This document shows, piece by piece, positions 31,584 through 62,322 of a stretch of 64,000 nt of DNA. Each line of letters opens with the position of its first letter. The stretch's first letter is position 1. The stretch lies in assembly GCA_934661375.1 (NCBI GenBank), contig CAKUJH010000004.1, forward strand, positions 45,968 to 109,967. Reading direction: 5' to 3'. Under the pieces are notes generated by a model that saw nothing but the letters and a program-made list of their open reading frames with translations, was not told where the DNA came from and did no database searches. Source of the stretch: an uncultured Victivallales bacterium. GTDB taxonomy: Bacteria > Verrucomicrobiota > Lentisphaeria > Victivallales > UBA1829. The position numbers and the translations under genes were made by a program.

Positions 31584-34481
31584 TCATTTTTCGATGCGGA
31601 AAAGCATCGTATCTCCAGTTTTCATGTTTCGTTCAATGCGGCGGACATTCTGCAGAGTTTTTCCACTGAGAAGATCCGTCAGATTCATCGTGCGGGGCAG
31701 TTCAAGGCAATGCTCTCCGTCGGAAGCGGCATGAAGCATGATGAAACCTTCATTGGCTCCGACGATGTCGCCGGTGCGGTTGTAAATATGCACTCCCGCC
31801 TGTTCCGCAGCCCCCCGCAGAAGTCCGGCAGTGGGACGCGTGAGACTGTAAATGCTTCTGCCGCCCCAGGGGGCTTCCGCACTTACAACGGCGGGATTTC
31901 CCTGAAACTCCGCGATGGTCTTGAAACCGTTTCCGACCGGCTTGAATCCGGGGTCAAACGCATAGTATTCCGGATCCTGACGCAGATAACGGGCAAGCGG
32001 ATCGTCCGGAGCGGTGATTTTCAGACGGGAACGCGGGACTTTCCGCACTGTTTCCAGTTTGATTCCCGTCAGCAGCTGACTGATTCCCGTGCTGACTCCG
32101 CCGTAAGTGATGAAGCCGGGCGCGTAAAACCACAATGCCGCCGCTTTATTTTTCGCCAGAATGGAATGGATTTTTTTCACCTGTTCCCGTTCATTGCCGC
32201 CCAGATACCAGAGATTCGGGAAAACATAGAGTTTGTACTCCGGAATTTTTCCTTCCAGAAAATCACTGTACAGATACGTATCGAACGGAACACCCGCCCG
32301 CCAGCATTCGGAAACCGCGTTCCGGACATAATCCCGGTGCTGTTTGACTGAATCATTGACGAACATCATGCTGACTTCATCCATGATCAGAGCCACTTCG
32401 GCAGTCGAACGCCGGGGCTGATTCCGCTGTTCCTTTTCAATCCGGGCAAGCTCGGCAATCTGCCGCATCAGTTCTTCGTTGTGGAAGGTGCGGACGCCTT
32501 CCAGCAGCAGCCACTGAATGGACGTGCCGCGGGTCAGGGCATTCGCAAGAGTGCGCGTGTTGACTTGCAGGGTTTCTTCCAGTGTCGGCGTGCGGTAAAC
32601 CGTATCGAAAGAAGTGAAACAGGTCCGCATATCCGCTTCATCGAAATAGAGTTTGCCATGAAGCGTGAGCGATGCCGTGTAGTCGTTGAGATAATCGCCT
32701 TCCTGTCCGGCGCGCCGTCGGTCATACGCCATGCAGCCCATCATGAAATCGACGTTCGGATCACGCAGGACACGTCCCAGGGAGTGGAATCCCTGGTTTT
32801 CCAGATCCGGATGCCAGAGCGTGTAGCCGAAAAACACTCCGACCGGTTTTTTCACGGACATTGCCTCTTTGGCGCCGCGGGCAAACATGCCGATGCAGTC
32901 TGCAACGGTATCGCTGGCGAACATCCGGTAGTCGATGACCCGTCTGGCTTTGGGATAGTAGCGGAAAAATCCGTATTCCGAGCGGCGGCGTTCTTCCGGC
33001 GGCGGAACTGCGGCTGTCTGAAGCGTTATTTCCGTATTGCCGTAGGCACGCTGAAGCGCGGCGTCGCTCTTGTAGCGTTTGCCCAGCCATTGACGGAACG
33101 CCGCCTGATTGCATTCCGAATAATCCACATACCCGTTGTGGCTGCCCCACCAGTACCATTCGCTGGCACGTCCGCCGGCAATCAGATACCCCGCAACTCT
33201 GCCAGCCCAGGGGCCGCTCTCCACATGCCGGATGAATGTCTGCATTGCCTTCATGGCATCCTTCCGCCAGGACGGACTGTTGAACGAAGGCTGAAAGCGG
33301 TCTGTCTTTCCTTCCGGGGTGCAGCCGGCTTCCTTTTTATGCTGCGCGCACCACCAGCGCGGCATGTCGATTTTGAGACGGATCAGCAGAAAATTTTCCG
33401 GACTGGCTTTCACCGCCGCTTCCAGCTGCTGATCCACAATCGTCCAGTCGTATAGGTCCGGACCTGTGTACCAGTCGCGGATTCCATTTTTCCAGATGGT
33501 GAGATTCTGGACACAGACTCCGGTCAGCCGGATTCCCGCCGCCGCAAAATCCCGTTCCGAAGCCCTGGCATCGGAATCTTTGTCTTTTGCGGAGACACAT
33601 GACATCATGCCGGGCAGAATCTGTCCGTTGCGGCTGAACGCCGGTGCGCCGTTGTGCATGACCACTTTCACTGGAAGATTTTTTACGGATTGCACCGGCG
33701 GAAGATTTTTTTCATATTTCTGTGTCAGCTGCAGTTTGGTTTCAAATCCGGGCGTCTGCGGAGCAAGGGTTTCTTTCCAGCGGTCGGGAACCTGAATGGT
33801 GCCGGATGGATAGTACTTCCGTTCCGCTTCGAAGTGTGCGGAGACTTCTTCCTGGGAAAGAGTGCGGTTGTAGAAAGAAATCCTGCCGATCCATCCGTCG
33901 AAGAATGCGATGGTGCCGCCACCGCCGCCTTCTCCTGCGCCGATCCGGACAGACGCATCGGTCCAGGGAATAAATTTCCCGCGGGCGATGCTCCGGGCAG
34001 CCGGTTTGCCGTTGATATAAGTCCGGAATTCGCCGTTTTCAAAGGTGCCGGCAATATGATTCCATTGTTCCGGAGTAACTTTCGCGCAGTCCTTGAGCGG
34101 AATCAGTTTGGTTCCGTATTTTCCCGTGCGCAGTTTATCTGAATAGCGCAGCACGCCTTCCCAGAAACGGGAAAACGGATTGATGAAGGAAAACAGCGGG
34201 ACATTTTCAAACAGCTGAAGACTGATTTCCGCCGCATCGCGGGAACGGTCGCCCTTGAATACAATGGTGTGATAGCCTTTGGCTCTTGGACCCGGCACAA
34301 TCCAGGCTTCCATGGAAAAATTCTTTTCATTGAAATTTTCCGGTTTCAGCTGCATTTCCAGTTTCTGTTCCGGGATGTTCCCCATCAGAACCGGTTTGCC
34401 GTGTTCCCCGAAGGATGCTGTCGGCGCCTGTGCCAGCAACATTGCGGGAAGGCAGAAAAGCAAGAAGGTATGGAGTTTCAT
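31584..34481 (-). CDS. Large secreted protein: an N-terminal LamG module plus a GH42-like/clan-A-like putative glycoside hydrolase region
   Basis: 965 aa. Signal peptide MKLHTFLLFCLPAMLLAQA. LamG blocks FSMEAWIVPG...IVFKG...FFDGWIGRISFYNRTLSQEEV. Confidence 0.55.
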   Translation of the reverse strand: MKLHTFLLFCLPAMLLAQAPTASFGEHGKPVLMGNIPEQKLEMQLKPENFNEKNFSMEAWIVPGPRAKGYHTIVFKGDRSRDAAEISLQLFENVPLFSFINPFSRFWEGVLRYSDKLRTGKYGTKLIPLKDCAKVTPEQWNHIAGTFENGEFRTYINGKPAARSIARGKFIPWTDASVRIGAGEGGGGGTIAFFDGWIGRISFYNRTLSQEEVSAHFEAERKYYPSGTIQVPDRWKETLAPQTPGFETKLQLTQKYEKNLPPVQSVKNLPVKVVMHNGAPAFSRNGQILPGMMSCVSAKDKDSDARASERDFAAAGIRLTGVCVQNLTIWKNGIRDWYTGPDLYDWTIVDQQLEAAVKASPENFLLIRLKIDMPRWWCAQHKKEAGCTPEGKTDRFQPSFNSPSWRKDAMKAMQTFIRHVESGPWAGRVAGYLIAGGRASEWYWWGSHNGYVDYSECNQAAFRQWLGKRYKSDAALQRAYGNTEITLQTAAVPPPEERRRSEYGFFRYYPKARRVIDYRMFASDTVADCIGMFARGAKEAMSVKKPVGVFFGYTLWHPDLENQGFHSLGRVLRDPNVDFMMGCMAYDRRRAGQEGDYLNDYTASLTLHGKLYFDEADMRTCFTSFDTVYRTPTLEETLQVNTRTLANALTRGTSIQWLLLEGVRTFHNEELMRQIAELARIEKEQRNQPRRSTAEVALIMDEVSMMFVNDSVKQHRDYVRNAVSECWRAGVPFDTYLYSDFLEGKIPEYKLYVFPNLWYLGGNEREQVKKIHSILAKNKAAALWFYAPGFITYGGVSTGISQLLTGIKLETVRKVPRSRLKITAPDDPLARYLRQDPEYYAFDPGFKPVGNGFKTIAEFQGNPAVVSAEAPWGGRSIYSLTRPTAGLLRGAAEQAGVHIYNRTGDIVGANEGFIMLHAASDGEHCLELPRTMNLTDLLSGKTLQNVRRIERNMKTGDTMLFRIEK

Positions 34482-40320: not shown

Positions 40321-43300
40321 TTATCTGCCGCTTTTGAGCTGTTCCTGGATTCTGGAAAATTCAGGAGTGCTGTTTCTGCGCGGCCATTCCTTCGCAGACG
40401 GCAGTATTTTGTTGAAGCGCAAACCGATACAGTAAACGCTCTCCTGTCCGGAAGAATCCCGCAGGTACAGCGGCACATAAAGCAGTTTTGCCGCAGAATC
40501 ATAAACTGCGCCCGGCGTCAGCCAGAGCCGGATCGCCGCCCAGTCATGTTCCACGGAAACCGTCAGTTCCGGAGTTCCTTTGACGGAATAATTCATGAAG
40601 GAGAAGGCAATGCGTCTTACGGCGGCATCGCCGTCCAGCAGGAAACGTTCCTTGCCGGCTCCTTCCGTCCGGGTGTTCACGGGAGCCGCGCCTTCCGCCG
40701 CGACGGTCAGATAACGGTATCTGAGCCATGCCGGAGTTTTTCCCGGCGCGATGGCGGCACACATCCGTTTCTGAATATCCGCGGGGAGTACAACGATGCT
40801 CCAGCGCAAGGGTTTCAGGGTATTGGTCAAGGCGTCGGCAATGGTTCCGGCGCGTTCACACCAGACCCGATCCGCCGCAGTGAAACGGGGATCCGGAGGA
40901 AGCTGATGAATGCGCTGTCCGGCGTTTTTGGCGGAGGCGGGTTCCGTTTTCTGCGGCGGCAGAAATTCCAGGAACCGTTTCAGATCGCCGGCTGACAATG
41001 CTGTCCCGGAAGCGTCTGCGCAAAGCGGAAAACGCTGAATCATGCCGATGCAGTCGGCATATTGTTTTGCCCGCGCCGTGACGGCATTCTGACGGAGCAG
41101 CGCGCAGGCGTCCTCGACATAATGAGTCCACCAGCCGATGTTGCCGGCTTCATTTTTCCCTTGCACGATGGAATAATTCAGCGCGAATTGTTCTTCCGGC
41201 AGAACGGAAATGACGTTCCAGGCTTCAAGCGGATTTTTGGGAAGCGCATTCCAGTTGGCAACTACCCGGAGACAGGTTTCCGTGTAATGCGGAGTCAGGA
41301 CCGCCATGACACCGGCAAATTCGCCGATGGTCTGGTCGCGGAGTTTCCGGTTGGCGGGAGAAAGCAGTTCCGCCGGAATTTCCGCAAGATGCCGCCGCAG
41401 GGTTTCATAAACCGTACCGAGAATGGCGTTGGTGCGGTACGCTTTGAGCGTGGCATTTCTGTCCTGGAAATCCTGATAGCTGGCGGGATGGAAGCCCAGC
41501 GTATCCGGATAATTCCGCCAGTAGGCAATATATTCCGTAAGATAGGAATCGAAGGCATTGCGGATATCCTTGATTCGTGTCGGAACCTGAATGGTTCCGG
41601 TGTTTCCTTTGGGCGAAGCTGCGGTTTTCGCCAGCAGAGCCGCGGCGTTCTGCATCAGCGGCAAAGCGGCTTCGGGGTCGAAATCCTGACGGTATTCCAG
41701 TTTTCCGACAGACTGTCCTGCCAGTTCCGGCGGAATCCGGAAAACATTTTCCTGCTGTCTGGTGCCGGCGATCCGGTTGCGCAGGGTTTCTCCGGAGGCG
41801 GGCAGACGTCCAGCCTCTTCATTCAGCAGTTTCCAGCGGGAATACTGCATGGCGGCATTCATGGCACTGCGTTCCGAAACAATCAGGGAGTCGTCTTTGC
41901 CCAGGGCGTCTCCGCAGATTGCCGCAAACCAGTCAAAGGCGGACTGCTGTTCTTTCAGCTTCTGCTCATTGGCTTCCCAGTTCTGCTGAAAACCGTTTTT
42001 GCCGGATTTTTCCTGATGCAGCGGCGCGGCAGCCAGTTCGCGCAGACGGATGGACAACTGAGCCAGAGTCATCGGACCGATGGAATCGGCAGCGGTTTTT
42101 TTGATGCCGACCGGACGCATACAAAGCTGATAGAACTGCGGCATCCGTTCTTTCTGAACTGCGGTGTCTGCGTTAATGGCATTCAGCACCGTTTTGCGCC
42201 AGAGTTCGATTTTTTCCTGCTGCATGGAGGTGTTTCCCCGTGCCGGATTCCGGGCGGATGCGGCTGCGGACAGCGCTTTGTAATCCTGTTCGAGCAGATC
42301 GCGGAACGAGGCGACCGCCTGGTTCAGGATCGTGATTCCGTGATCCTTGTAATCCAAAATTCCGGATTTGACCGCAGAACTGTTCTGGCCATTCATCGGG
42401 AAAAGCTGTTTGCCGGTCCGGATGAATTCCTCGGTCAGCGCGCTTCGCTGTTTCAGGTTTGCCTGAAGCTGTTCCGGTGCGATATTGGCAGGCGAGACGA
42501 TCTGCTGGCGGAGCTGTTTGTCCAATTCCGAAAAACGAAGGACATTCTGCAGATGTTCGCGCAGCTGTCCGTATTTGCTTTCCGGATAAATGTTCAGATT
42601 CTGCCATGCCTGCATCAGACGTTCTGCGCCGTAGCGGCAGGAACGGCTGAAATCCTTGGAAAACAGGAAGATGTTGTCCGTCATGGAGCTGGTCGTGCGG
42701 TCTTCCGCGTAAGAGGCAAAGTACGCCAGCGAGGCTTCGCTGATGTCCGGGTCCAGATAACGCATGAAATCCGCAATGCTTCTGTTGTCCCGGTCTTTGC
42801 GGTCGTGCGAGAAGAGATACCAGGGTTTCTTTTTCAGGGTTCTGCTCCGGATGAATTCCCGGATGACCGCGCCTTCCGCGGCGGAAACCGTTTTGTCTGC
42901 CGGGGTTTTCAGCAGTTCCTGTTCGGCGATTTGAATCATGGGTTCCATCAGCATGTTGGAAAGGATTCCGTTGTGGATGATTTCCCGTTCGGCGTACCCC
43001 ATATCGGTGAATGAGCCGAAAAGCAGGAATGAGGAAAGCCGGAAGGCGAACGGCGGTTTGACCGGAGTGGTCAGCATATCGTATTCCGATGCAAACAGGT
43101 TCATCCGGAGGATTGAGCTTTCCCCGGAAAGCGGCAGGGTCGCCGTCAGTTCCCAGGAATTTTCACCGTCGGGTACGATCAGCGGCGACTTTTTCAGTGT
43201 GCCGTCGCGGAGTTTTTCGGCAATGAACTTGTAATATCCGGTCTGCGTTTTCAGGTTGCGGCTGATCTGCGGACTGACATATAAGCCGCTGAGCAGGAAG

Positions 43301-44643
43301 GTCAGCCCCATGCCGAGCAGAATCAGACTGACCAGATAGTACGGAATATTGCGGCGGAAGCGTTCCGCGGCGGTGAATTCCGCCAGGTCTCGCCGGCAGA
43401 AGATGAAATTATGCAGCAGACTGCGGATGAACGCGCCCTGCCGTTCCGGACGCGGCTGTTTGATGACCGGCGCATCGTCCACGTTTTTTCCGAGGGCGGA
43501 GGCATATTCGGCATCCAGACAGACCCCGGCGTCTTCCGCGGAGGTGAAGAACACGCCGGACAGGATTGCTTTTTCCGAAGCATGGAGGTTTTCTGTGCCG
43601 AACAGACTTTTGAGATAAAGGGACAGCACCGGTTTCAGGGAATTGAAACTTTCCGGGAAGGTGAAAATATCCCCCGCGGCTGCACCGCGTTCCGCGCCGG
43701 ATGCATCATGCACCTGACGCGACAGCATACCGGAAAGCCGTCCTTCGCAAAGACGGTTTATGACTTTTTCCCAGAAGCTGTCAAAATCCGCGGCGGAAAA
43801 CGTTCCGGCATGTTCGCAGTTCCAGCCGAACACATCATTCCGGAAAGCATCTTTGGCATTGTCGAAATATTCACGGAATCCGACCAGCATGTCGCATTTG
43901 GTCACGACCACCCAGCAGGGCAGGAGCATCCCGACGGAACGGATCAGCCGGTTCAGTTCCGAGGCGATCAGCAGAGCTTTTTTCCGGACCTGCGATTCTT
44001 CATCCGCCAGCAGGGCGTCTGCGGGAATCGTCAGAATGATTCCGTCCAGCGGATGTTTCGCATGTTTTTTCCGGATCAGCTTGACAATCTTTGCCCATTC
44101 TGCGCCGGAGCCGTTCATCCATCTGTCGAAGAAAACCCGTCCGGCGACATCCAGCACCACCGCCTGCGGTGTTGTCCAGAAACGGAGAGGTACCGATTCC
44201 CCTTCCTGCTGATTTTTGTCTTCTTCAACGGAGACGCGGGTATCCATCTGACATTTCCGCAGCAGGGAGGATTTGCCGCAGGATGGTTCGCCGAGCAGCA
44301 TAAACCAGGGCAGGTCATAAGGCTTCCGTTCCAGTTCGGACAGCATTTTCATGCCGCGCCGGAAAAGACCGGGGATCATTGCCGTCCGGACCGTTACCGT
44401 CTCGCGGACAGAGTCTGCACTGTCTCCGCCGCGGGCGAGGCGGTTCAGATTTTTCCATGCCATGAGATCGTCTTTGAGTTTGGCGGTTTCCTTGTTCTTT
44501 GCATGATTTGCGCGGAATTTCCGGTACAGCGGAAGGCACACTCCGAAGACCAGAAGCAGCAGAATGACAAATCCTGCAAGAAGGAGCAGCCAATGCTCTC
44601 CGCACCAGTTGATGAATGTATTGCCGGTTGCTGTCTGATTCAT
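40321..44643 (-). CDS. tssM: T6SS membrane-complex protein TssM (IcmF)
   Basis: 1440 aa. An N-terminal hydrophobic segment, Walker A LLGEPSCGKSSLL, a second TM segment (NIPYYLVSLILLGMGLTFLLSGLYV), and a long periplasmic region. It is the last gene of the T6SS operon. The ATG overlaps the tssL stop as ATGA. Confidence 0.85.
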   Translation of the reverse strand: MNQTATGNTFINWCGEHWLLLLAGFVILLLLVFGVCLPLYRKFRANHAKNKETAKLKDDLMAWKNLNRLARGGDSADSVRETVTVRTAMIPGLFRRGMKMLSELERKPYDLPWFMLLGEPSCGKSSLLRKCQMDTRVSVEEDKNQQEGESVPLRFWTTPQAVVLDVAGRVFFDRWMNGSGAEWAKIVKLIRKKHAKHPLDGIILTIPADALLADEESQVRKKALLIASELNRLIRSVGMLLPCWVVVTKCDMLVGFREYFDNAKDAFRNDVFGWNCEHAGTFSAADFDSFWEKVINRLCEGRLSGMLSRQVHDASGAERGAAAGDIFTFPESFNSLKPVLSLYLKSLFGTENLHASEKAILSGVFFTSAEDAGVCLDAEYASALGKNVDDAPVIKQPRPERQGAFIRSLLHNFIFCRRDLAEFTAAERFRRNIPYYLVSLILLGMGLTFLLSGLYVSPQISRNLKTQTGYYKFIAEKLRDGTLKKSPLIVPDGENSWELTATLPLSGESSILRMNLFASEYDMLTTPVKPPFAFRLSSFLLFGSFTDMGYAEREIIHNGILSNMLMEPMIQIAEQELLKTPADKTVSAAEGAVIREFIRSRTLKKKPWYLFSHDRKDRDNRSIADFMRYLDPDISEASLAYFASYAEDRTTSSMTDNIFLFSKDFSRSCRYGAERLMQAWQNLNIYPESKYGQLREHLQNVLRFSELDKQLRQQIVSPANIAPEQLQANLKQRSALTEEFIRTGKQLFPMNGQNSSAVKSGILDYKDHGITILNQAVASFRDLLEQDYKALSAAASARNPARGNTSMQQEKIELWRKTVLNAINADTAVQKERMPQFYQLCMRPVGIKKTAADSIGPMTLAQLSIRLRELAAAPLHQEKSGKNGFQQNWEANEQKLKEQQSAFDWFAAICGDALGKDDSLIVSERSAMNAAMQYSRWKLLNEEAGRLPASGETLRNRIAGTRQQENVFRIPPELAGQSVGKLEYRQDFDPEAALPLMQNAAALLAKTAASPKGNTGTIQVPTRIKDIRNAFDSYLTEYIAYWRNYPDTLGFHPASYQDFQDRNATLKAYRTNAILGTVYETLRRHLAEIPAELLSPANRKLRDQTIGEFAGVMAVLTPHYTETCLRVVANWNALPKNPLEAWNVISVLPEEQFALNYSIVQGKNEAGNIGWWTHYVEDACALLRQNAVTARAKQYADCIGMIQRFPLCADASGTALSAGDLKRFLEFLPPQKTEPASAKNAGQRIHQLPPDPRFTAADRVWCERAGTIADALTNTLKPLRWSIVVLPADIQKRMCAAIAPGKTPAWLRYRYLTVAAEGAAPVNTRTEGAGKERFLLDGDAAVRRIAFSFMNYSVKGTPELTVSVEHDWAAIRLWLTPGAVYDSAAKLLYVPLYLRDSSGQESVYCIGLRFNKILPSAKEWPRRNSTPEFSRIQEQLKSGR

Positions 44644-46751: not shown

Positions 46752-47225
46752 TTATTTTTCACTCCGGATCAGCCCGGACGGCGTTATGCGGAAATGCAGG
46801 GTTTTCCTGAATAAAAATGATTTATCGTATTTCACGGAAATTCTGCGTCCGTCTGCTTTCAGATCGCCCCGGATCGGCAGGTTGACATACAGAATCAGTT
46901 CATCCGGGGATTTTTCCGCCCAGCGGTCCCAGCAGTCCGCACTGCCGGAAAGGGTCCGGGTGCGGAGCGTGTATTGGGAAAACGTCAGCGTCTCCGGACG
47001 AAGAGATGTCCGCATCGGACTGTCCGGCTCGAAGTAGAAATCCACATCCGCATTGCCGGCGCGTCTGGCTTCATCGCCGCCGGTCGCCGCTATATCCACT
47101 TCCAGCGACGGGCATATTCCGAAATGTTTTTCCACTTCCGGCGCGACCGTGACTTCCACATTGGGGGAAAGACAGCCGCAAAGCAGCAGCGCCAGCACTC
47201 CCGGTACCAGTATTTTTATTTTCAT
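46752..47225 (-). CDS. tssJ: T6SS outer-membrane lipoprotein TssJ (assigned by position and lipobox)
   Basis: 157 aa. MKIKILVPGVLALLLCGCLS lipobox. ggagg RBS. It lies immediately upstream of tssK-tssL-tssM. Confidence 0.6.
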   Translation of the reverse strand: MKIKILVPGVLALLLCGCLSPNVEVTVAPEVEKHFGICPSLEVDIAATGGDEARRAGNADVDFYFEPDSPMRTSLRPETLTFSQYTLRTRTLSGSADCWDRWAEKSPDELILYVNLPIRGDLKADGRRISVKYDKSFLFRKTLHFRITPSGLIRSEK

Positions 47226-47243: not shown

Positions 47244-48485
47244 TTATTTCCAGCGTTTGTATTCTGTTTTCGGTATGTTCTGCGATGAATCCGGATTGGA
47301 TTTTCCGGTTATCGCTTCATGCGGCGCATTCAGTTCCGTCAGCGCATCCGGCCAGAGATTTCTGGCGAGAACCACTTCCATCCCCAGTGAAAAATAAATC
47401 TCATATCGTTCCGGAGCTTTCCGGGTGCCGCCCGGCGCCATTGCCATCATCAGCAGTGCGCTGTTGAGTCCGGTTCCGGGGAGTTCCGGCGGTGTCGGAA
47501 TAATGATTTTTCCTTCCGGCGCCATGTCTCCGAAACTCCAGAACGCCGTATAGGCAAGCATTCCTTCCGGTGTTCCGGGCGCCTGATTTCCGCATTCCAG
47601 AGCCAGACGCGAATTCACCTCGTCCGGAGCGGCAACCCAGCGGTACACCGCCTGAACTGCCGCTTCGGAACGTTTTTTCCGGTCCGTCATCATTTGCAGG
47701 GATACTTCCGGAGTCGCCGGATATTTCTGCGGCAGAGCCGCTTTGACCTGGGCGGCGACCGCCTGCCGCTGTGTTTCGATTGCTTCGCGCAGACGCAGAA
47801 ACGCTTCCATTTCCGGCGTATCCGTGCGGTTGATCCGGTAGGTCAGCGGCGAAGTTTCCGCCGTTTGTTTCGCTGTCTGGAACCGGGCTTCCGCGGTTGT
47901 TCCGAACCTCTGCCGGGTCAATTGACGCAATGCCTCCCGTTTCTGCTGATAAAAATCCCGGACCGGAGCGGGTATCAGACCGGTCAGCGCGCTGGTTTTT
48001 TCTTTCATTTTTGCGGAAGCCGCCGCAATTCCGGACGGGTCTTCGGGCGGCAGAGCCGGGAAGGACGCCAGTTCTTTGAGGTCAAAGTCCGGCATCTTCG
48101 CCATATTGTCAATATCGGTCGGATTCCCTTCCAGCGCGGGCAGGGTGACTCCGGTTTTTTTCAGCTGCTGACGCAATTCCGCTGCGTGCGGATTTTCCGG
48201 CGGCTGCTCTGCGTTTTGAAGTTCTTCCAGAAGAGAGAGCAGACAGATATAACCCCACCACACTGCGGCGCGGCGGTGCAGCATACGCGCGATGAATTCG
48301 CAGCCGTCCCGGAACAACCCTTTCTGCCGGAAGGCTTCCAGCAGTTCCATGGATTCCGGGTGTGCTTCGAACAGCGGTTTCAGATCCGGACGTATTCTGT
48401 AATTTTCGCGTTCGGCGACAGGACGCCACAGCGTATCACGCAAAAGCACGGAGTGCCGGTTCATCCATTCCAGTTTGTCTGCCAT
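47244..48485 (-). CDS. T6SS-embedded protein of unknown function (Y, 413 aa)
   Basis: ATG at 48485 with a gggagg RBS. No signal peptide or clear TM segment. Tryptophan-rich patches (RAAVWWGYICLL, YTAFWSFGD) and a central Q/A/R/T-rich helical-looking region. I recognise no family. Confidence 0.7.
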   Translation of the reverse strand: MADKLEWMNRHSVLLRDTLWRPVAERENYRIRPDLKPLFEAHPESMELLEAFRQKGLFRDGCEFIARMLHRRAAVWWGYICLLSLLEELQNAEQPPENPHAAELRQQLKKTGVTLPALEGNPTDIDNMAKMPDFDLKELASFPALPPEDPSGIAAASAKMKEKTSALTGLIPAPVRDFYQQKREALRQLTRQRFGTTAEARFQTAKQTAETSPLTYRINRTDTPEMEAFLRLREAIETQRQAVAAQVKAALPQKYPATPEVSLQMMTDRKKRSEAAVQAVYRWVAAPDEVNSRLALECGNQAPGTPEGMLAYTAFWSFGDMAPEGKIIIPTPPELPGTGLNSALLMMAMAPGGTRKAPERYEIYFSLGMEVVLARNLWPDALTELNAPHEAITGKSNPDSSQNIPKTEYKRWK

Positions 48486-48500
48486 AATACCTGCCTCCCT

Positions 48501-49037
48501 TTACACCTGCGTTTTCAGCGCATTGATTTTGGTTTGCAGTGTTGCCACTTGGGTGGACATGGCGGTTGCCGCTGTTTCCAGGGCATTGGCATGGTCGGTA
48601 ACCGCAGTTACATCCGTGGTAAGTGACTGAATATCAGTCCGTATTGCGGCGAATTTGGAGTCCAGAGCCGCGGCGGCTCTGGTGGCGGAAACACTGACGG
48701 AACTTTCCAGTCCGGTCAGACTCAGCCAGAACCCGGTGAAAGTGATGGAGGCAAGCGTAAAGCTGGCGCCGAATGCTTTCACGTCAATTCCGACACCTAC
48801 GGCTGTGGCGGACCCGCCGGTCGCGGAGGCATCGGCAATTTTTGCTCCGGCTCCGCCGAACGATACTTCCGCTGTCCATTTCGATTTGCCGGAATCATCC
48901 GCTTCCGTGCTGTTTTTATCCATTTCGACATTTCCATCGGAAGGACTGCCTTTCCCGGAAGCTCCGGACTGCAGAAAATTTACGCATCCGGAAAACGGAC
49001 TGCTCAGACTGTCCAGAATATTTTCATTTGCACTCAT
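48501..49037 (-). CDS. T6SS-embedded small protein of unknown function (X, 178 aa)
   Basis: ATG at 49037. Its RBS TAAGGAGG incorporates the vgrG TAA stop. It has a G/S/A/D-rich N-terminal half, a hydrophobic segment FGASFTLASITFTGFWLSLTGL, and a ~60-aa T/A-rich coiled-coil-like C-terminus (AAIRTDIQSLTTDVTAVTDHANALETAATAMSTQVATLQTKINALKTQV). Confidence 0.7.
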   Translation of the reverse strand: MSANENILDSLSSPFSGCVNFLQSGASGKGSPSDGNVEMDKNSTEADDSGKSKWTAEVSFGGAGAKIADASATGGSATAVGVGIDVKAFGASFTLASITFTGFWLSLTGLESSVSVSATRAAAALDSKFAAIRTDIQSLTTDVTAVTDHANALETAATAMSTQVATLQTKINALKTQV

Positions 49038-49047
49038 CAGAACCTCC

Positions 49048-51894
49048 TTATTTGCTGCCCGCGCCGTCGGCGTAATCGGAAATGGTTTTGTTGGACAGGT
49101 CATTCACGAACTTGACATTCAGATCCAGCTGATGACCGCGGACAGTGATGCTGGAAGACAGTTCGGAGGCAATGCTTCCGTTGACGGTTTCCACCGCCTG
49201 CCGCTGCACATCCAGCTGTTCCGCAAAAGCCTGAGCGCGGATCAGCTCCCGTTCGGTAACGGCAACCGAAGGAGAACCGCCGGGAATTTCCCGGAACATT
49301 TCCGCAGACGCTGCTGTGCTTCGGACCGTATAGGATGACATGTTGCCCAGTTCCCCCGCAGTCCGTGCCAGTGCGGAATACGTACCGCGGAAATTGGCAG
49401 CCGGCGGCAGCGATGTCTTGGTGTCGCACATGACGCTGCTGTCCAGATCCACTCCGCGGTCTGCAATGGAACGCGGCTTTCCGTCCGGTGTCTTGCCGCT
49501 TTTCCAGGCGTCCAGAGTACGGGTGATTTCGTTCAGCCCGGAGGTTTCATCCAGATGGGAAAACGCATCGGTCATCTTGTCGCGCGGCACGGTTGCCACA
49601 TCCACGACTGCGCCGGCTCCCATGAGAACCCCGTTGGCAACCTGGATGGATGCGCCGAGCGCATCGGTCAGCAGGGCGGAGAACAGACTGTTGAACCGGA
49701 GGTTTGCGCCCGATACGGAAACTCCGTCCGTCGCATTGATGCAGACCGTTGAATCGTAATTGGTTACGGTGTCCAGCACTTTCAGCGACCGGAGCATGAT
49801 ACCGTTCTGGTTTACTGTAACGGACGACGCCCCCGAAACCGACCGGACCACGCCTTCGCTTTGCAGATTCACCATGCGGCTGCCGTTGATATTGACCGCC
49901 GCCGCGGAAATGTTGAGCGTACCGTCCGTTTTGATGTCGATGCCCTGCTTCGAATACTGGAGAATCGACCCTTGCGTGAACAGTCGCAGCACATTGCCGG
50001 TACAGAACGGATTGCGGTCCAGTTCGAAAACACTCACGGCTTCTTTTGCCAGCGCGGTCAGAGCCAGCGCGGAATCATTGCCCGGCGACAGAAAATAATT
50101 TTTCCGTACCGTCAGCAGACGCGGTTTCCAGTTCAGCTCGACATCCGCGCGTTTCTCCTGACTGTTTTCATCAAATGCCAGCTGCATGAGAAACGCATAG
50201 GCGGTTCCGTCCACGATTTTCTGTTCCATGGCTTCGGAAGCCTGTTCATAACGGGAAAAACCGATTTCGTCATATTGACCGGACAGATCCTTTTCTTTTC
50301 CCGGAGCGGAATACCGCAGAGCGGAAGCATTGCGTGCGTGAGTATCTGTCCCGTCGGTGAATTCGCTGAAAGCTCCCGTTTTATCCGGGGAATATCCCAG
50401 CAGCACAACTTTGTCCGGTTCTTCCAGAAGCAGCACCCGTTCGCCGACGCGCGGGAACCGGTACAGTCCGGAACGTTTTCCGCCGAGCGGCATATTCATT
50501 TCCACATCAATGCAGGGATTTTCGGAATCGGCATTTTCGTTGCGGACCAGAAAACGCCAGGGCGTATCCGGCATGGAGCGCGGCGACTGCACCAGCGTGT
50601 TGCGGGTTTGCGGGTCATCCGTCTTTCCGTTGATGTCGCAGACAATTGCCTCCCGGATGACCGGGGCTTCGCTTCGCTGCATTTCCGGTTCTTTCGCGCA
50701 GAAACGCCTGTCCTGCGCGTCTTCCGCATAATCCATGCAGTGAAAGGACAGTTCAAAAACTCCGGCATCCGTGGAATCATCCAGCGTAACGGACAGTTCC
50801 GAATGGAGAATTTTCACTGTTACCGGCGGATCGTCCGGCTGCGCCCGGTAGAAACTGCGGATTTTCAGGATTTCGCCCGGTACCGGCAGCAGCAGAGAAG
50901 TGGTCCCGTGCCAGTCATCCTGTTCCAGACGGAACGCCCTGCCTTGCGCTTCTGCCGCGCAGTCTGCACTGGCGGATACGGTGTCATCGTCAATGTCATT
51001 TCCATGATCTGCCGGAGTTCTGTCAGAAAGATAAACGCTGCTGCCGTCTCCGTTTTCTGCATGAATGGTCCGGGATTCCAGCGGGTGCAGGAAATTTCCT
51101 TTGACGGCATCTGTTCCGATTCCGACGGACGCGCTGAACTGTTTTATGGGAAACGCCGTATCTGCGGAAATCATACTGAAATCGAACACTCCGTTTTCCG
51201 CTTGTGCCGCCAGCTGGTTCTGCTGATCCGCCGGATAACCGGTGAATTCAAAGGCACAGGTTCCGGGATATGCGTTGCCGTCGGAAAGATAAAGCATTTC
51301 CTGTCCGGCTGTTTCGTGGCGGAAGAAAAAAGAAATACCGTATCGCGCCATAATCCGGCGGACGAAATCGAAATCGGTTTCATCGCGCTGGAAGAAGCGG
51401 AGTCCACCGGAATATTTTTCCGCGGTTATGTATTTTGAATCGATCACTGCGGAAATGCCGTGCCGACGGAATACCGACTGAACGGTTTTCAGCGGCGTTG
51501 TGTCTGGATAATCCAGGGTCCGGCGGACGTATTTCAGCGCGGCGGCTTCCGGTTCAAGAGTCAGATGCAGCAGCACTCCTTTGGTGAAGCGTTTGCCGAA
51601 CTGTTTCAGCCAGCCGGGATGCAGGGATGCGGCTCCGGTTACGGAATAACGGGTTACAACGCCGTGCAGCGGACGCCGGATAATTCCGCCGTTGTAAAAC
51701 TGTTCAATGGTCAGCGTAACGCGTTTCCGCAGAAGATCGTTCTTCAGCGATGAAAGGGTCAGGCTGGATTCCGGAATGACCAGGTCGGCGTCCGCACGGT
51801 ACAGTTCGGAAATCCCTTCCCGGAGGGTAAGCCCCCAGACCTGGCTGTCTGCCAGTCCGCCGTCCTGAAACTGAATGTTGATCTGCGATTTCAT
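49048..51894 (-). CDS. vgrG: T6SS spike protein VgrG (TssI) with an extended C-terminus
   Basis: 948 aa. A gp27-like N-terminal region, a gp5 OB-fold block MPLGGKRSGLYRFPRVGERVLLLEEPDKVVLLG, a short beta-helix-like segment (~residues 640-735), and a ~200-aa tail with no recognisable domain. Confidence 0.85.
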   Translation of the reverse strand: MKSQINIQFQDGGLADSQVWGLTLREGISELYRADADLVIPESSLTLSSLKNDLLRKRVTLTIEQFYNGGIIRRPLHGVVTRYSVTGAASLHPGWLKQFGKRFTKGVLLHLTLEPEAAALKYVRRTLDYPDTTPLKTVQSVFRRHGISAVIDSKYITAEKYSGGLRFFQRDETDFDFVRRIMARYGISFFFRHETAGQEMLYLSDGNAYPGTCAFEFTGYPADQQNQLAAQAENGVFDFSMISADTAFPIKQFSASVGIGTDAVKGNFLHPLESRTIHAENGDGSSVYLSDRTPADHGNDIDDDTVSASADCAAEAQGRAFRLEQDDWHGTTSLLLPVPGEILKIRSFYRAQPDDPPVTVKILHSELSVTLDDSTDAGVFELSFHCMDYAEDAQDRRFCAKEPEMQRSEAPVIREAIVCDINGKTDDPQTRNTLVQSPRSMPDTPWRFLVRNENADSENPCIDVEMNMPLGGKRSGLYRFPRVGERVLLLEEPDKVVLLGYSPDKTGAFSEFTDGTDTHARNASALRYSAPGKEKDLSGQYDEIGFSRYEQASEAMEQKIVDGTAYAFLMQLAFDENSQEKRADVELNWKPRLLTVRKNYFLSPGNDSALALTALAKEAVSVFELDRNPFCTGNVLRLFTQGSILQYSKQGIDIKTDGTLNISAAAVNINGSRMVNLQSEGVVRSVSGASSVTVNQNGIMLRSLKVLDTVTNYDSTVCINATDGVSVSGANLRFNSLFSALLTDALGASIQVANGVLMGAGAVVDVATVPRDKMTDAFSHLDETSGLNEITRTLDAWKSGKTPDGKPRSIADRGVDLDSSVMCDTKTSLPPAANFRGTYSALARTAGELGNMSSYTVRSTAASAEMFREIPGGSPSVAVTERELIRAQAFAEQLDVQRQAVETVNGSIASELSSSITVRGHQLDLNVKFVNDLSNKTISDYADGAGSK

Positions 51895-51903
51895 GATGCT
51901 GCC

Positions 51904-52194
51904 TCAAACCAGAAAATTGATTCCGACGGTGATTGCTTCCGCTGTCGCAACGGGAACTCCGGTTACCGGGTTGACTCCGGCAACCATCGAAGTCAGCGAG
52001 GCGACGGGGCGTCCTCCGACCAGATAGGTCGGATGCATGGATACGGTGATTGCGCCGGTGCAGACCGCCCCCGTTACCGTGTCTCCCATGCAGGCGACAG
52101 GCAATCCGTTGACCAGAAAACAGGGGAATCCCGGACCGGTGATCAGGTCGCCGGTCGCGGAAACGCCGGCAATTGTCGAGACGGGGAACGGCAT
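51904..52194 (-). CDS. PAAR-domain spike-tip protein (minimal, 96 aa)
   Basis: I chose the ATG at 52194 (aggagg RBS, 1 nt after the clpV stop). PAAR-like blocks GDLITGPG, NGLPVACMGD, TG.VCTG and GGRPVA. Confidence 0.8.
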   Translation of the reverse strand: MPFPVSTIAGVSATGDLITGPGFPCFLVNGLPVACMGDTVTGAVCTGAITVSMHPTYLVGGRPVASLTSMVAGVNPVTGVPVATAEAITVGINFLV

Positions 52195-52195
52195 G

Positions 52196-54841
52196 TCAGA
52201 CCTCCTTCCGCAGTTTGAACCGGTAGATGAAACGGCCGTTTTCGGCATCGAGTCCCGCATGGGAGAACGATTTCCCTTCCATGACGGTTTCCAGAAATTT
52301 CATGCTGAGTTCCGGCAGCAGATCGTTGTTGATGATCGCGTCGATCATGCGTGCGCCCGACGCAATGTTATCGCACCGGCTGATGATTTCATCCCGGACG
52401 GCATCCGTGTACGCCAGTTCTGCATGATAGTTTTCTTTCACCCGGCGCACGACTTTGTTGAGTTTCAGGTCAATGATCCGGTTCAGCGCCGCTTTGCCCA
52501 GCGGATAGTACGGCACAATGGAAAGACGTCCGAGCAGTGCCGCCGGAAAATGTTTCAGCATGGCGGGACGGACTGCGTTTTCCAGAATCTTGACGTCCGG
52601 CAGATGCTCTTCATCGCCGCAAAGACGCATGATTTCCTCGTCGCCAACATTGGTGGTCAGGAGTATGACCGTGTTCCGGAAGTTGATGAGGCGTCCTTCG
52701 CCGTCCTCCATCTGACCTTTGTCGAAGACCTGGAAAAAGATTTCATGGACATCCGGATGCGCCTTTTCGATTTCGTCGAGCAGGACGACGCTGTACGGTT
52801 TGCGGCGGACCGCTTCGGTCAGCACACCGCCTTCACCGTATCCGACGTACCCCGGAGGTGCGCCTTTGAGCGTGGAAACCGTGTGGGCTTCCTGAAATTC
52901 ACTCATGTTGATGGTGATCAGACTCTGTTCGCTGCCGTAAAGCTGGTCGGCAAGTGTGAGCGCCGTTTCCGTTTTGCCTACGCCGCTCGGTCCCGCCAGC
53001 ATGATGACCGCAATCGGACGGTTGGGATCCGCCAGAGACGCCCGTGCCGTCTGAATCCGGCGTGCAATCAGTTCCAGTCCGTGTTTCTGCCCGATGACCC
53101 GTCTGTTCATTTCATCGGCAAGTTTCAGAATGGACTGGATTTCGTTTTTGACCATGCGGCCCAGCGGGATTCCGGTCCATTCGGAGATAATGGTGCAGAC
53201 TGCCTGTTCATCCACCTGCGGGAAAATCATGGGCGTTTCGCCTTGCAGATCACGCAGTTTTTTCTCAACGGCGCGGAGCTTATCCAGAGTTTTGCTGTCC
53301 TGTCCGTTTTCCCGGAGCTGATCCCGGAGCCGGGTGTATTCCCGCACCAGCTTCTTCTCTTTTTCCGTCCGTGCGGCAAGTTCGTCGCGGTGTTTTTTTT
53401 CGGCGTCAAGTCCGGCTTTCAGTTTTTCCAGGGCTTCCGTGTGATCCTGTCCGGACGCCTGTTCACGGGTCAGAATATCCGTTTCCAGTTCCAGAGCCGC
53501 AATTTTCCGGCGGGAATATTCCAGACTGGCGGGTTCGGCGTTCTGGCTCATGGCGACTCTGGCACATGCGGTATCCAGAATGCTGACCGCTTTATCCGGC
53601 AGCTGACGGGCGGGAATATAGCGGCGGGACAGTTTGACTGCCGCTTTCAGCGCTTCATCCAGCACCAGCACTCCGTGATGTTTTTCCAATGCCCCGACCA
53701 TTCCGCGCATCATCTGAATGGCCTTGCCGTCATCCGGTTCATCCACTAAAATGTTCTGGAAACGGCGGGTCAGTGCCGGGTCTTTTTCGAAATACTTGAC
53801 ATATTCCTGCCAGGTGGTTGCCGCAATGCAGCGCAGTTCGCCGCGGGCAAGGGCGGGTTTGAGCAGATTGGCGGCGTCGTTCTGTCCGGCGGCTCCTCCA
53901 GCCCCGATCAGAGTGTGCGCTTCGTCAATGAACAGAATGATCGGCACATCGGAATTCTGTACTTCCTCAATGACGCTTTTCAGACGGTTTTCAAATTCCC
54001 CTTTCATGCTGGCTCCCGCCTGAAGCAGTCCGATGTCCAGCGAACGCAGCACTGTTCCTTTCAGACAGTCCGGCACATCCCCGGACGCCAGCCGCTGGGC
54101 AAAGCCTTCAACGACAGCGGTTTTTCCTACGCCGGCTTCTCCGGTGAGAATCGGGTTGTTCTGCCGTCGCCGCATCAGAATGTCGATGATTTTACGGATC
54201 TCCGAATCTCGTCCCACGATCGGGTCGCATTTGCCGTTCCGGGCTTTTTCCGTCATGTCGACCGTATAGAGCCGCAGGGCTTCCCCTTTGCCCATCGCGG
54301 GCGCACTCAACATGGCTCCCGCCTGACCCGTTGCCGCGGATTCCCCGGAGTAAACCACGGAAGTTTCCGTTGAATTCTGTACAATTTTCCGGAAATTTTC
54401 CTGCAGCAGATCCGCATTGATTTTGGCAAATTCCATGCTGATGTCCAGCAGAGTACGCGAAAGTTCCGGTGTCTGACGGATCGCCAGCAGCAGGTGTCCG
54501 GTGCGGATCGCCGTTTCGCTGAAAACCAGCGACGCCAGCATCCAGGCTTCTTTCACCGCGATTTCGATCTGATTGGAAAAATCGGATATGCTTCCGGCTC
54601 CGCGCGGCAGACGGTCCATCGCCGCGGTCAGGTCTTTGGCAAGTTTCGCCGTGTCCAGCTGAAATTCCCGCACGGCACAGCTCCAGTCCGTGTTGTCGGT
54701 CAGCAGTATCTGGTTCACCCAATGCACCAGTTCCACATAGGGATTGCCGCGCGTTTTGCACAGAATGGTCGCGCTTTCTATGGTTTTATATGCGGTCTGG
54801 TCCAGTTTTCCGAAAAGCTGAATGCGTTTCAATTTACTCAT
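52196..54841 (-). CDS. clpV: T6SS AAA+ disassembly ATPase ClpV (TssH)
   Basis: Two AAA modules ([13 protein letters not shown] and [11 protein letters not shown]). The ClpV-type N-domain starts [25 protein letters not shown] prefer the ATG at 54841 to the track start at 54871. Confidence 0.9.
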
Positions 54842-60938: not shown

Positions 60939-62018
60939 TCAGGCTTCGTCATTCTGTTCATTCCGGATTCCGAAAATCTCCCGGCCTTTTTCCTGGGCGC
61001 CGGATTCAATTTCCCCCAGCAGATCCAGAAAATTCATATCTGCCATCCGCATCGCCCGGCGTACCAGAAACGGTACGGGACTGGTCGGTTCCGCCTGCTG
61101 GAAATATTCCGCCGCTTTCTGAAGCAGCAGCAGTGCCTCCGCTCGGCTGGATGGTGCAAACTGGGATATATTCACCGCGGCTGACGGCATGGCGGTCTGC
61201 GGACGTGCCGCGGAAGTTTCCGCGGTTCCGGTTTCCGTATCAGCTGCTTCCTGCGGCGCGGCATTTTCAGTCAGACAGCAGGAACTGTAAAAATTCCGGA
61301 GTATTTTCAAATCCGCAAACAGCGCGGCAAAATTCAGCGAGCCTTCTCCGGCATGACTGTCCACCGCCTGAACAATATCCTGCAGTGCGGCATACACCGC
61401 GTCCGCCTGTTCTTTCCGGCTCTGCATCTGTTCACTGGAAACGGCACGCATTTCCGCATGGAACAGCGCGGCGTCGATTTTTCTGCCGTCGACGGCATCC
61501 AGATCACCGGTTACAACCATCAGGTCGCGCAGTGTGTACCGGTTGCTGTCCGTCAGACGCTGGGAACGGAAATGGTTGATGAACATAATCGGATCATTGA
61601 ATGTTCCCGGCGGCGGAGAGAGAATCGACAGAATGTTCAGACGTTCCGTCGGGTCGTTGTCGTCATCCGGGTCGAGCTGCGGATAGAATTCATCCCACAG
61701 ATCCCGCACGAGATACCGCATCAGTTCCAGCCCATCATGGAAACCCTGCAGACCGCGCAATGCGAAACCGGCGAGGGAAAGGTACACCGCGACCCGCAGA
61801 TCACGGGTATTTTTCCAGAGTTCGAGACAGTTTGCCTGAAGTTTTTTCCAGTCCGGATCACGACCTTCAATAATGGAATCGCCCATCTGACTGGGCTGCA
61901 CACCAGTTGCCAGGTTTTCCAGTTCCATGAACAACGGAGAATATTCCTCATTGGTGCCGCATCCGGAATTCGAATCTGACGAAACCGGCAAGCACATTTT
62001 TCTGATGTCAAATTCCAT
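60939..62018 (-). CDS. tssA: T6SS protein TssA (ImpA N-terminal domain family)
   Basis: I chose the ATG at 62018; the track start at 62075 is a TTG. The ImpA_N-like block reads DPDWKKLQANCLELWKNTRDLRVAVYLSLAGFALRGLQGFHDGLELMRYLVRDLWDEFYPQLD. The C-terminal block is SPVPFLVRRAMRMADMNFLDLLGEI. Confidence 0.8.
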   Translation of the reverse strand: MEFDIRKMCLPVSSDSNSGCGTNEEYSPLFMELENLATGVQPSQMGDSIIEGRDPDWKKLQANCLELWKNTRDLRVAVYLSLAGFALRGLQGFHDGLELMRYLVRDLWDEFYPQLDPDDDNDPTERLNILSILSPPPGTFNDPIMFINHFRSQRLTDSNRYTLRDLMVVTGDLDAVDGRKIDAALFHAEMRAVSSEQMQSRKEQADAVYAALQDIVQAVDSHAGEGSLNFAALFADLKILRNFYSSCCLTENAAPQEAADTETGTAETSAARPQTAMPSAAVNISQFAPSSRAEALLLLQKAAEYFQQAEPTSPVPFLVRRAMRMADMNFLDLLGEIESGAQEKGREIFGIRNEQNDEA

Positions 62019-62232
62019 TTCTGTTCCCCACGTCCTGTTTTTCAGCCGGAAAACCGCCAGATTGCGGTATTCCAATCATACCATAACCTGTTTTATATAT
62101 TTTTCAATTCAGTTTTTTACTTTTTTTTCGTTTTTTTTGCAGGAATATCGGGGTACGGAATTTGCCTTGTTCCGCGCATTTACTTTGAAAAACGATCATC
62201 ATAAAAAATAAGCATCTCGTGCAATAAGCGAC

Positions 62233-62260: not shown

Positions 62261-62322
62261 TTAATTTTTGAAAAAAATACCGGAATCACAATTGCAATTC
62301 AATAAAAGAGGGGTGCAGATCA

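Follow-up and report, generated by a model that had tools for sequence, protein, structure and literature searches.

The DNA considered here is a stretch of 64,000 nucleotides, referred to as the window, from an uncultured Victivallales bacterium (contig CAKUJH010000004.1 of GenBank assembly GCA_934661375.1). The window carries a complete type VI secretion system (T6SS) gene cluster on its minus strand, in the order tssA, tssB, tssC, hcp, tssE, tssF, tssG, clpV, PAAR, vgrG, X, Y, a gene for a 157-amino-acid lipoprotein, tssK, tssL and tssM, as read from Pfam assignments. The subject of this analysis is gene Y (47244..48485, minus strand), which starts with an ATG and encodes 413 amino acids. 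Judged from its sequence, Y is an insertion-bearing variant of the DUF6931 family, here called the long form, and it is predicted to be an all-helical, cytoplasmic protein. The family is catalogued in Pfam and is functionally unstudied: a literature search for DUF6931 or PF22011 returned no functional study and one passing mention in a preprint.

Reading Frame and Start of Y

A preliminary description of this DNA had presented Y as a genuine open reading frame (ORF) with a strong ribosome-binding site of its own, located between X and tssJ. This holds, with the proviso that the label TssJ is indirect. The site, GGGAGG (48494..48499, minus strand; read from the sequence), lies 8 nt before the ATG and abuts the stop codon of X (48501-48503), which it follows immediately. 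The start codon appears to be correct since, in the alignment, homologs of Y open with the same MADKLxW... N-terminus. The ORF is more than a chance occurrence because a database search found 149 homologs, with identities from 99% down to 32% and E values down to 1e-272. Only 18 nt separate the stop codon of Y from the next ATG (47225), and the downstream gene has its own GGAGG. A 310-aa ORF with a TTG start lies antisense to Y (47694-48626, plus strand); it is most likely a shadow ORF, the Y frame being the conserved one.

No signal peptide and no transmembrane (TM) helix were found in the translation of Y or in a hydropathy scan, as had been stated before. The maximum 19-residue Kyte-Doolittle mean is 1.01, compared with 2.04 for the 157-aa lipoprotein.

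A DUF6931 Domain Split in Two

In a Pfam scan of Y at E<=0.01, judged against the curated gathering cutoff, DUF6931 (PF22011) was the sole match, scoring 87.2 bits against a cutoff of 27 (E=1.5e-24). PF22011 is carried by all 120 Y homologs listed. Y matched none of TagF, TagJ (ImpE), Fha (FHA), DUF4123, DUF1795 and DUF2169, exactly as the preliminary description had judged by eye, but the protein is not without a family. DUF6931 is one of uncharacterised function, and no match to a known T6SS accessory or effector family was seen. The same scan detected no toxin, MIX, Rhs or PAAR domain in Y. A scan of NCBIfam gave nothing above cutoff for Y, X, the lipoprotein or the ORF upstream of tssA, and a scan of PHROGs gave no phage family for Y.

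The DUF6931 domain is about 145 residues long and is contiguous in the Pfam profile and in short relatives of Y (short forms), while in Y it is split. Residues 1-48 (48342..48485, as all following coordinates on the minus strand) are an N-terminal part conserved in long forms by regional conservation; from about residue 15, this part aligns with the N-terminus of the short forms (hhalign pairs long 15-88 with short 6-75). Residues 49-94 (48204..48341) form the first piece of the domain, corresponding to profile positions 2-47, with the motif HRRAAVWWGY; this fragment alone matches Pfam with E=1.9e-8. Residues 95-264 (47694..48203) form a helical insertion that splits the domain, is absent from the short forms and, taken as a fragment, has no Pfam match. 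The insertion is about 170 aa long in Y, with lengths of 132-177 aa in homologs, and no other region varies as much in an alignment of 64 long forms. The second piece, residues 265-371 (47373..47693), corresponds to profile positions 38-144 with E=1.8e-17, and contains the motifs WVAAPDE, AFWSFG and PTPP. Finally, residues 372-413 and the stop codon (47244..47372) comprise, by model and alignment, the last helices and a low-confidence tail with a semi-conserved YKRWK. The consensus of the 64 long forms ends in ...YKRWKP; the tail is variable and the cores are well conserved.

The long and the short forms are homologs (hhalign probability 99.1%, E=1.5e-18). The second block of this alignment pairs long 271-377 with short 79-185, and the short forms have three residues at the site of the insertion.

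The family motifs H..R.AVWW, WV..PDE, AFWS.G, a PPP stretch and RY...F..G are invariant or nearly so in the 64 long forms. The invariant residues are H70, W76, W77, Y79 and E88 in the first piece, and W283, P287, W316, G319, P323, P332, R360 and Y364 in the second. In an alignment of 35 short forms, W66, W91, F124, W125, S126 and G128 are invariant, and H56, W65, V92, E97, A122 and Y169 nearly so. Trp-rich patches had been noticed at both ends of Y at the outset. They are present and are the most conserved parts of the family (W76, W77 and W316 are invariant), but they are halves of one split domain and not separate end domains.

Structural Models

An AlphaFold model of Y is all-helical, with a predicted local distance difference test (pLDDT) score of 84.6 and a predicted template modelling (pTM) score of 0.70. 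The cores score above 90, the helices of the insertion between 63 and 88, and residues 400-413 below 50. The linker between the Trp patches had been described as helical in appearance, and the predicted helices of the insertion bear this out. The model of a short form from Vibrio cholerae is more confident (pLDDT 96.3, pTM 0.92).

Foldseek searches of the PDB gave a best E of 1.5 for the long model and of 1.1, with TM-scores below 0.31, for the short-form model. The long model had no match with E<0.1 among the viral structures of BFVD. Sequence searches of the PDB with Y alone, with a long-form profile and with a short-form profile returned nothing meaningful.

Distribution of Y and Its Gene Neighbourhood

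The survey of Y relatives covered 74 genome loci and several metagenome contigs. Long forms were found in gut Alphaproteobacteria, termite-gut Treponema and Spirochaetaceae, Succinivibrio and Succinatimonas (Succinivibrionaceae), Mucispirillum, and bacteria of the Planctomycetes-Verrucomicrobia-Chlamydiae (PVC) group. The nearest relatives of Y come from Kiritimatiellia (51% identity), a Verrucomicrobia metagenome-assembled genome (MAG; 47%) and Victivallis (46%); going by these relatives, the window probably derives from a PVC bacterium of the gut. Short forms of about 187-195 aa are frequent in Vibrionaceae, Photobacterium and Shewanella, and occur in Moellerella and others. An exhaustive hidden Markov model search matched 950 clusters (50% identity) with E <= 1e-3; among the best 150 of these, the top ones are mostly full-length long forms, and the lower ones mostly short forms of about 185-250 aa or fragments. 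The suggestion that Y is lineage-specific must therefore be given up, as the long form alone spans at least five phyla.

The link of Y to T6SS, proposed at the outset, is confirmed. Other T6SS genes are present on the same contig for 85 of 86 Y genes, so the homologs do not lie mostly outside T6SS loci. Among the 58 relatives with enough upstream sequence, a VgrG gene lies within 3 kb upstream of Y in 56, and a hydrophobic protein of about 130 aa, here called S130, is encoded directly 5' of Y in 53. The downstream side, counted over 72 relatives, is less uniform: the next gene is TssJ-like in 32, another needle gene in 16 and something else in 24. Y is thus to be grouped with the spike genes on its upstream side rather than with tssJ, given how much more regularly VgrG precedes than TssJ follows.

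A reverse test, seeded with TssK in metagenome loci, gave a consistent picture. Y is present in six out of six loci of the same T6SS subtype that contain a VgrG. Four gene orders occur in these loci, namely VgrG-S130-Y-TssJ, TssM-VgrG-S130-Y, PAAR-Y-VgrG and Y-TssJ...TssM-VgrG-S130-PAAR, which suggests that Y follows the spike genes and not tssJ. In TssK-seeded loci of a more distant T6SS subtype from soil and sediment, no Y was found within 10 kb.

A kinship of this T6SS with the Campylobacter/Helicobacter type has been suggested (PMC5285517). It could not be extended to Y by tblastn against plasmids: with the Y of the window and that of Mucispirillum as queries, the only matches were short forms on Vibrio plasmids, and no Campylobacter T6SS plasmid was hit.

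Several loci contain additional genes close to the spike module. In a Treponema locus (L001:12185-15076), genes for a SpoIIE phosphatase, a STAS protein and a HATPase_c_2 kinase adjoin it, and in a PVC locus (L082:1-2492) it is adjoined by SpoIIE phosphatase and STAS partner-switching genes. Another PVC relative, L083, has two modules of VgrG, small protein and DUF6931, and encodes a 462-aa polymorphic-toxin deaminase protein (MafB19-deam, Bd3614-deam) between clpV and hcp (L083:4581-5969). One full T6SS cluster that includes Y (L023; CAVCSV010000011.1) is filed under the Gram-positive species Limosilactobacillus gorillae; this contig is almost certainly mis-binned.

Split VgrGs and Tandem Needle Cassettes

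The vgrG gene of the window (49048-51894, minus strand; Pfam) encodes a single protein. Its N-terminal half is a gp27-like hub (50665..51894), with a match to Pfam Phage_GPD at residues 25-240 (E=1.2e-21). The C-terminal half, residues ~411-948 (49048..50664), is a gp5-like needle with an extension, as judged by alignment to separate VgrGC proteins; its homologs give weak OB-fold and DUF2345 matches. In many relatives, VgrG is divided into a gp27-like gene of about 410 aa and a separate gp5-like gene of 420-930 aa, which aligns with the VgrG of the window from residue 412. For example, the separate VgrGC proteins of L005, an Alphaproteobacteria MAG, align to residues 412-771.

In L005, the unit of needle gene, S130 and Y is repeated in tandem in at least six copies, and there are two to four copies elsewhere. 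Split VgrGs or tandem units were seen in L005, L013, L015, L019, L027, L038, L044, L055, L070, L073 and L083. Between repeats within one genome, identity is 17-56% for the C-terminal part of the needle, 34-67% for its N-terminal 330 aa, 52-100% for S130 and 61-83% for Y. Of the repeated unit, Y is thus the member that varies least. The tandem units look like a set of exchangeable spike cassettes.

The conservation of Y is also high when compared across phyla. The median identity to the protein of the window is 34% for Y, 36% for TssG, 32% for TssJ, 28% for TssM and 24-26% for the VgrG halves. Y is therefore conserved at the level of T6SS core parts, and above either half of VgrG.

S130 has an N-terminal hydrophobic helix, a middle part rich in A, S, T, E and G, and a conserved end GASDIETKALKMT. 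With a hydrophobicity threshold of 1.6 (19-residue Kyte-Doolittle mean), 54 of 69 S130 proteins and 47 of 69 VgrG C-terminal regions contain TM-like segments, but all 69 Y proteins lack them. No toxin domain was recognised in the C-terminal extensions of nine long VgrGs and that of the window; only Phage_GPD and weak DUF2345 matches were returned.

Gene X and the Victivallis Array

In the window, the position of S130 is held by gene X (48501..49037, minus strand), which encodes a small protein rich in A, S, T and G, with a moderately hydrophobic stretch and a heptad-like C-terminal region. X had been given 200 aa, and this length is probably wrong. The 200-aa ORF (48501-49103, minus strand) overlaps the end of vgrG by 56 nt. 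A database protein with 98% identity starts at an ATG at 49037, which lies just 3' of the vgrG TAA and an AGGAGG; X is therefore probably 178 aa long.

A homolog search with X found only one near-identical (98%) fragment. X matches an S130 profile weakly (E=0.008 among about 2,700 ORFs), and shares 28% identity over 123 aa with its positional counterpart in L083. X may thus be regarded as the positional counterpart of S130, with marginal homology. Several proteins at this position in PVC relatives have collagen-like G-X-Y repeats and heptad-like C-termini; the collagen-like repeats suggest that they form trimers.

An array in Victivallis (L009:3369-6603) shows which parts vary. A unit made up of the 3' end of vgrG, an X-like gene and the 5' end of Y is present in three copies, with direct repeats of 300 nt and 74-123 nt, and two ORFs fuse a 5' fragment of Y to a 3' fragment of vgrG. 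The three X-like variants are identical in their first 50 residues and diverge thereafter, and there is only one full-length Y, in the last unit. X is therefore the variable piece of this array, and the ends of vgrG and Y are its constant flanks.

Short Forms and FHA Fusions

Vibrio crassostreae (plasmid p2), V. cholerae and Moellerella have their short forms between vgrG and PAAR, downstream of plain VgrGs of about 660 aa that lack a toxin domain; the DUF6931 gene of L166 has the same placement between vgrG and PAAR. An N-terminal FHA domain is present in three short-form relatives, giving FHA-DUF6931 fusions of 320-355 aa, and the neighbourhood was examined for two of the three. The fusion gene of L166 (10001-11068) is part of a T6SS cluster, with a 694-aa VgrG on one side and PAAR on the other. 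In L167 (246-1208), the fusion gene lies directly before PAAR, on a short contig that ends before any vgrG. In the T6SS regulator Fha/TagH, the FHA domain binds phosphothreonine and is the phosphothreonine reader of the T6SS activation pathway. The fusions thus place DUF6931 in the cytoplasm of the producing cell, close to the control of T6SS assembly.

In V. cholerae and Moellerella clusters (L084:5351-5947 and L085:3449-4057), a gene for a protein kinase domain of about 200 aa lies between tssM and vgrG. Many short forms (e.g., P0129, P0132 and P0136) bear the name 'Twin-arginine translocation pathway signal' in NCBI and UniRef. This looks like a mis-annotation, since the short forms are cytoplasmic-looking helical proteins in T6SS loci.

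A Candidate Helper of Spike Assembly

T6SS spikes require dedicated helpers for the loading of their payload. DUF4123 (Tap-1/Tec), DUF1795 (EagR/EagT6) and DUF2169 proteins are cytoplasmic, of small to medium size and encoded next to vgrG or PAAR, and they are conserved while their payloads vary. Such chaperone-adaptors are duplicated together with spike modules, and their clients often have hydrophobic segments. Helper families of this kind are few.

Among the roles listed in the preliminary description, that of an assembly factor or chaperone, possibly with X as a partner, is favoured, while those of immunity protein and effector are disfavoured. In our estimate there is an even chance that Y is a non-secreted, dedicated helper in spike assembly or loading, which acts in the producing cell. 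This reading follows from the linkage of Y to VgrG and PAAR, its core-like conservation, its place as the least variable member of the cassette and the presence of one Y for several X variants. It also follows from the cytoplasmic character of Y, the hydrophobic putative clients encoded next door and the FHA fusions among its relatives. We infer from these features, rather than observe, that Y binds physically, what its bound partner is and that Y itself is not secreted.

The conserved helical core, comprising both halves of the domain and the Trp motifs, would recognise a common, tip-side part of the spike, which may be the gp5-like half of VgrG and/or PAAR. The insertion would handle the subtype-specific parts, namely the small hydrophobic or fibrous X/S130 protein and the C-terminal extension of VgrG. 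Y might keep this extension and X/S130 in solution and in the right state of assembly until the spike is placed on the baseplate. It would then stay behind in the cell, as the Eag, Tap/Tec and DUF2169 chaperone-adaptors do, to which Y is unrelated.

Several points weigh against such a helper. In the window, X (1.34) and the VgrG C-terminus (1.51) are both under the hydrophobicity threshold of 1.6, which makes the argument that Y shields TM segments weaker at this locus, and X is only marginally related to S130. Y has many invariant polar and aromatic residues (H11, H70, E88, R360, H389 and several Trp), more than is the norm for a simple chaperone, and could have an enzymatic or ligand-binding site. 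No effector-immunity pair was recognised in the T6SS cluster of the window, and the VgrG C-terminal domain, X or Y itself might be the payload. In addition, the presence of a separate Y in each duplicated needle cassette sits badly with one helper for all needles.

The idea can be widened to the whole family, in a form that we advance tentatively and think rather less than probable. DUF6931 may be an unrecognised, widespread class of T6SS spike assembly factors that acts on the VgrG-PAAR tip and is connected to phosphothreonine signalling by FHA fusion in some lineages, with the long form of gut anaerobes supporting exchangeable needles. In an exchangeable-needle system of this kind, a single gp27-like hub gene would precede arrays of alternative gp5-like needle genes, and every needle gene would be accompanied by a small membrane-active protein and a DUF6931 helper of its own.

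Other explanations of Y draw partly on the same observations. It is unlikely, although worth consideration, that Y is an assembly scaffold or checkpoint that links the finished VgrG-PAAR spike to the baseplate, the membrane complex or a phosphorylation signal, and so times building. The three FHA-DUF6931 fusions, which occupy the same gene position in both loci examined, would fit such a role, as would the small Pkinase gene just 5' of vgrG in Vibrio-type loci and the SpoIIE and STAS partner-switching genes beside the spike module in L001 and L082. The core-part-like conservation of Y points the same way, and its disordered tail with the semi-conserved YKRWK resembles a docking peptide. However, Y itself has no FHA domain, no kinase or phosphatase is found among the T6SS operon genes scanned in the window, and a general scaffold needs no duplication with every needle cassette. 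The fusions also bear on a different and quite improbable explanation, that Y is an effector secreted as cargo of the spike, with either X or the VgrG extension serving as the adaptor, because they point to a role in the cytoplasm of the producer. A host-cell target might explain the missing immunity gene of such an effector, and the hosts of the long form are all gut-associated; the ~190-aa short form, however, lies between vgrG and PAAR without an immunity gene in many free-living Vibrionaceae. Like the genes of many cargo effectors, that of Y comes directly after vgrG, and the cluster has no other recognised effector candidate. The invariant His, Glu, Arg and Trp residues of Y could make an active site, and its fold lacks a solved relative. 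The core-like conservation of Y and its occurrence in all six VgrG-containing clusters of its subtype are atypical of effectors, and Y has none of the toxin, MIX, Rhs or PAAR domains.

The possibility that Y is an immunity protein against a C-terminal toxin domain of VgrG, or against X, seems very remote to us. Y does lie downstream of a possible evolved VgrG, is duplicated together with the variable needle cassettes, and has a relative, L083, with a deaminase-toxin gene in its cluster. A DUF6931 protein of Pseudovibrio has also been labelled 'SsdA-like immunity' in passing (bioRxiv 10.64898/2026.06.19.733351). This label is unsupported, as no fold match was found, with the limits that Foldseek is weak on all-helical folds and that the presence of SsdA-SsdAI in the library was unchecked; neither the long nor the short model matches any solved structure. 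The variation within genomes runs against immunity: Y remains 61-83% identical among cassettes in which the needle C-terminus is 17-56% identical, and in L009 three X variants share one full-length Y. Moreover, nine long VgrGs have no recognisable toxin domain, the short forms follow plain ~660-aa VgrGs likewise free of one, FHA fusions exist among the relatives, and Y has no TM helix even though its putative toxins look membrane-active.

Likeness to Known Systems

The closest likeness of Y is to the short-form DUF6931 proteins, with which it shares the homologous core, the motifs, an all-helical cytoplasmic nature and adjacency to vgrG and PAAR. It differs from them in the domain-splitting insertion of about 170 aa and a tail of about 40 aa, and in that it comes after the extra X/S130 protein and not directly between vgrG and PAAR. 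With DUF4123, DUF1795 and DUF2169 proteins Y has in common its cytoplasmic nature, adjacency to spike genes, duplication and hydrophobic putative clients. Unlike them, it has no sequence relationship to these families and has an all-alpha fold unmatched in the PDB, and the binding of a client is presumed in its case.

Fha/TagH is connected to the family through the FHA domain, which is common to three DUF6931 relatives, two of them in a T6SS spike context; Y itself has no such domain. DUF6931 is not known to form the C-terminal region that Fha/TagH proteins usually have. Phage tail-fibre chaperones of the Tfa and T4 gp38 type share with Y the order of a trimeric or fibrous protein followed by a helper. 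This is an analogy only, and Y has neither a PHROG match nor a viral fold match. In comparison with the class of T6SS immunity proteins, Y does not co-vary with an adjacent toxin domain, and no toxin domain was found in the neighbouring VgrGs.

The split-domain long form, its constant association with a small hydrophobic protein and the arrays of needle cassettes appear to be undescribed in the literature searched. An all-helical DUF6931 protein accompanies VgrG and PAAR from Vibrio to gut spirochaetes, and this context gives a concrete, testable hypothesis for how spikes are helped to load their payload. If functional, split VgrGs and arrays of needle cassettes would be a way for gut bacteria to vary the spike. 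This could help to locate the effectors of these gut T6SSs, including that of Mucispirillum schaedleri.

Other Genes of the Window

The PAAR spike-tip gene (51904..52194, minus strand; Pfam PAAR_motif) is contained in an ORF of 118 aa (51904-52260, minus strand), whose full-length reading overlaps the end of clpV. Homologs of 96 aa align from residue 23, and the gene probably starts at the internal Met at this residue (coordinate 52194), which would give a homolog-like protein of 96 aa.

The 157-aa lipoprotein (46752..47225, minus strand) occupies the TssJ position and has a signal peptide and the lipobox MKIKILVPGVLALLLCGC. It has no Pfam or NCBIfam match, and neither do its counterparts in related clusters; it is 29-34% identical to the pre-tssK protein of those clusters. 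The label TssJ is therefore indirect, although reasonable. The combination of a lipobox with the lack of a profile match, here and in the counterparts, suggests that TssJ is divergent in the T6SS subtype of the window.

The genes tssK, tssL and tssM (40321-44643) and tssA (60939-62075), all on the minus strand, were assigned by Pfam. Just 5' of tssA lies a 350-aa ORF (62320-63372, minus strand) with no Pfam or NCBIfam match. No further T6SS genes were found in the rest of the window. Two ORFs of about 950 aa (20795-23632 and 31584-34481) were considered as extra VgrGs and rejected, being glycoside-hydrolase-like. The region 1-39500 encodes glycan-utilisation functions (GH2, GH42-like, Laminin_G_3, an esterase, MFS sugar transporters, GFO/IDH/MocA oxidoreductases and a LacI regulator), together with a protein with a prepilin-type N-terminal methylation motif (N_methyl).

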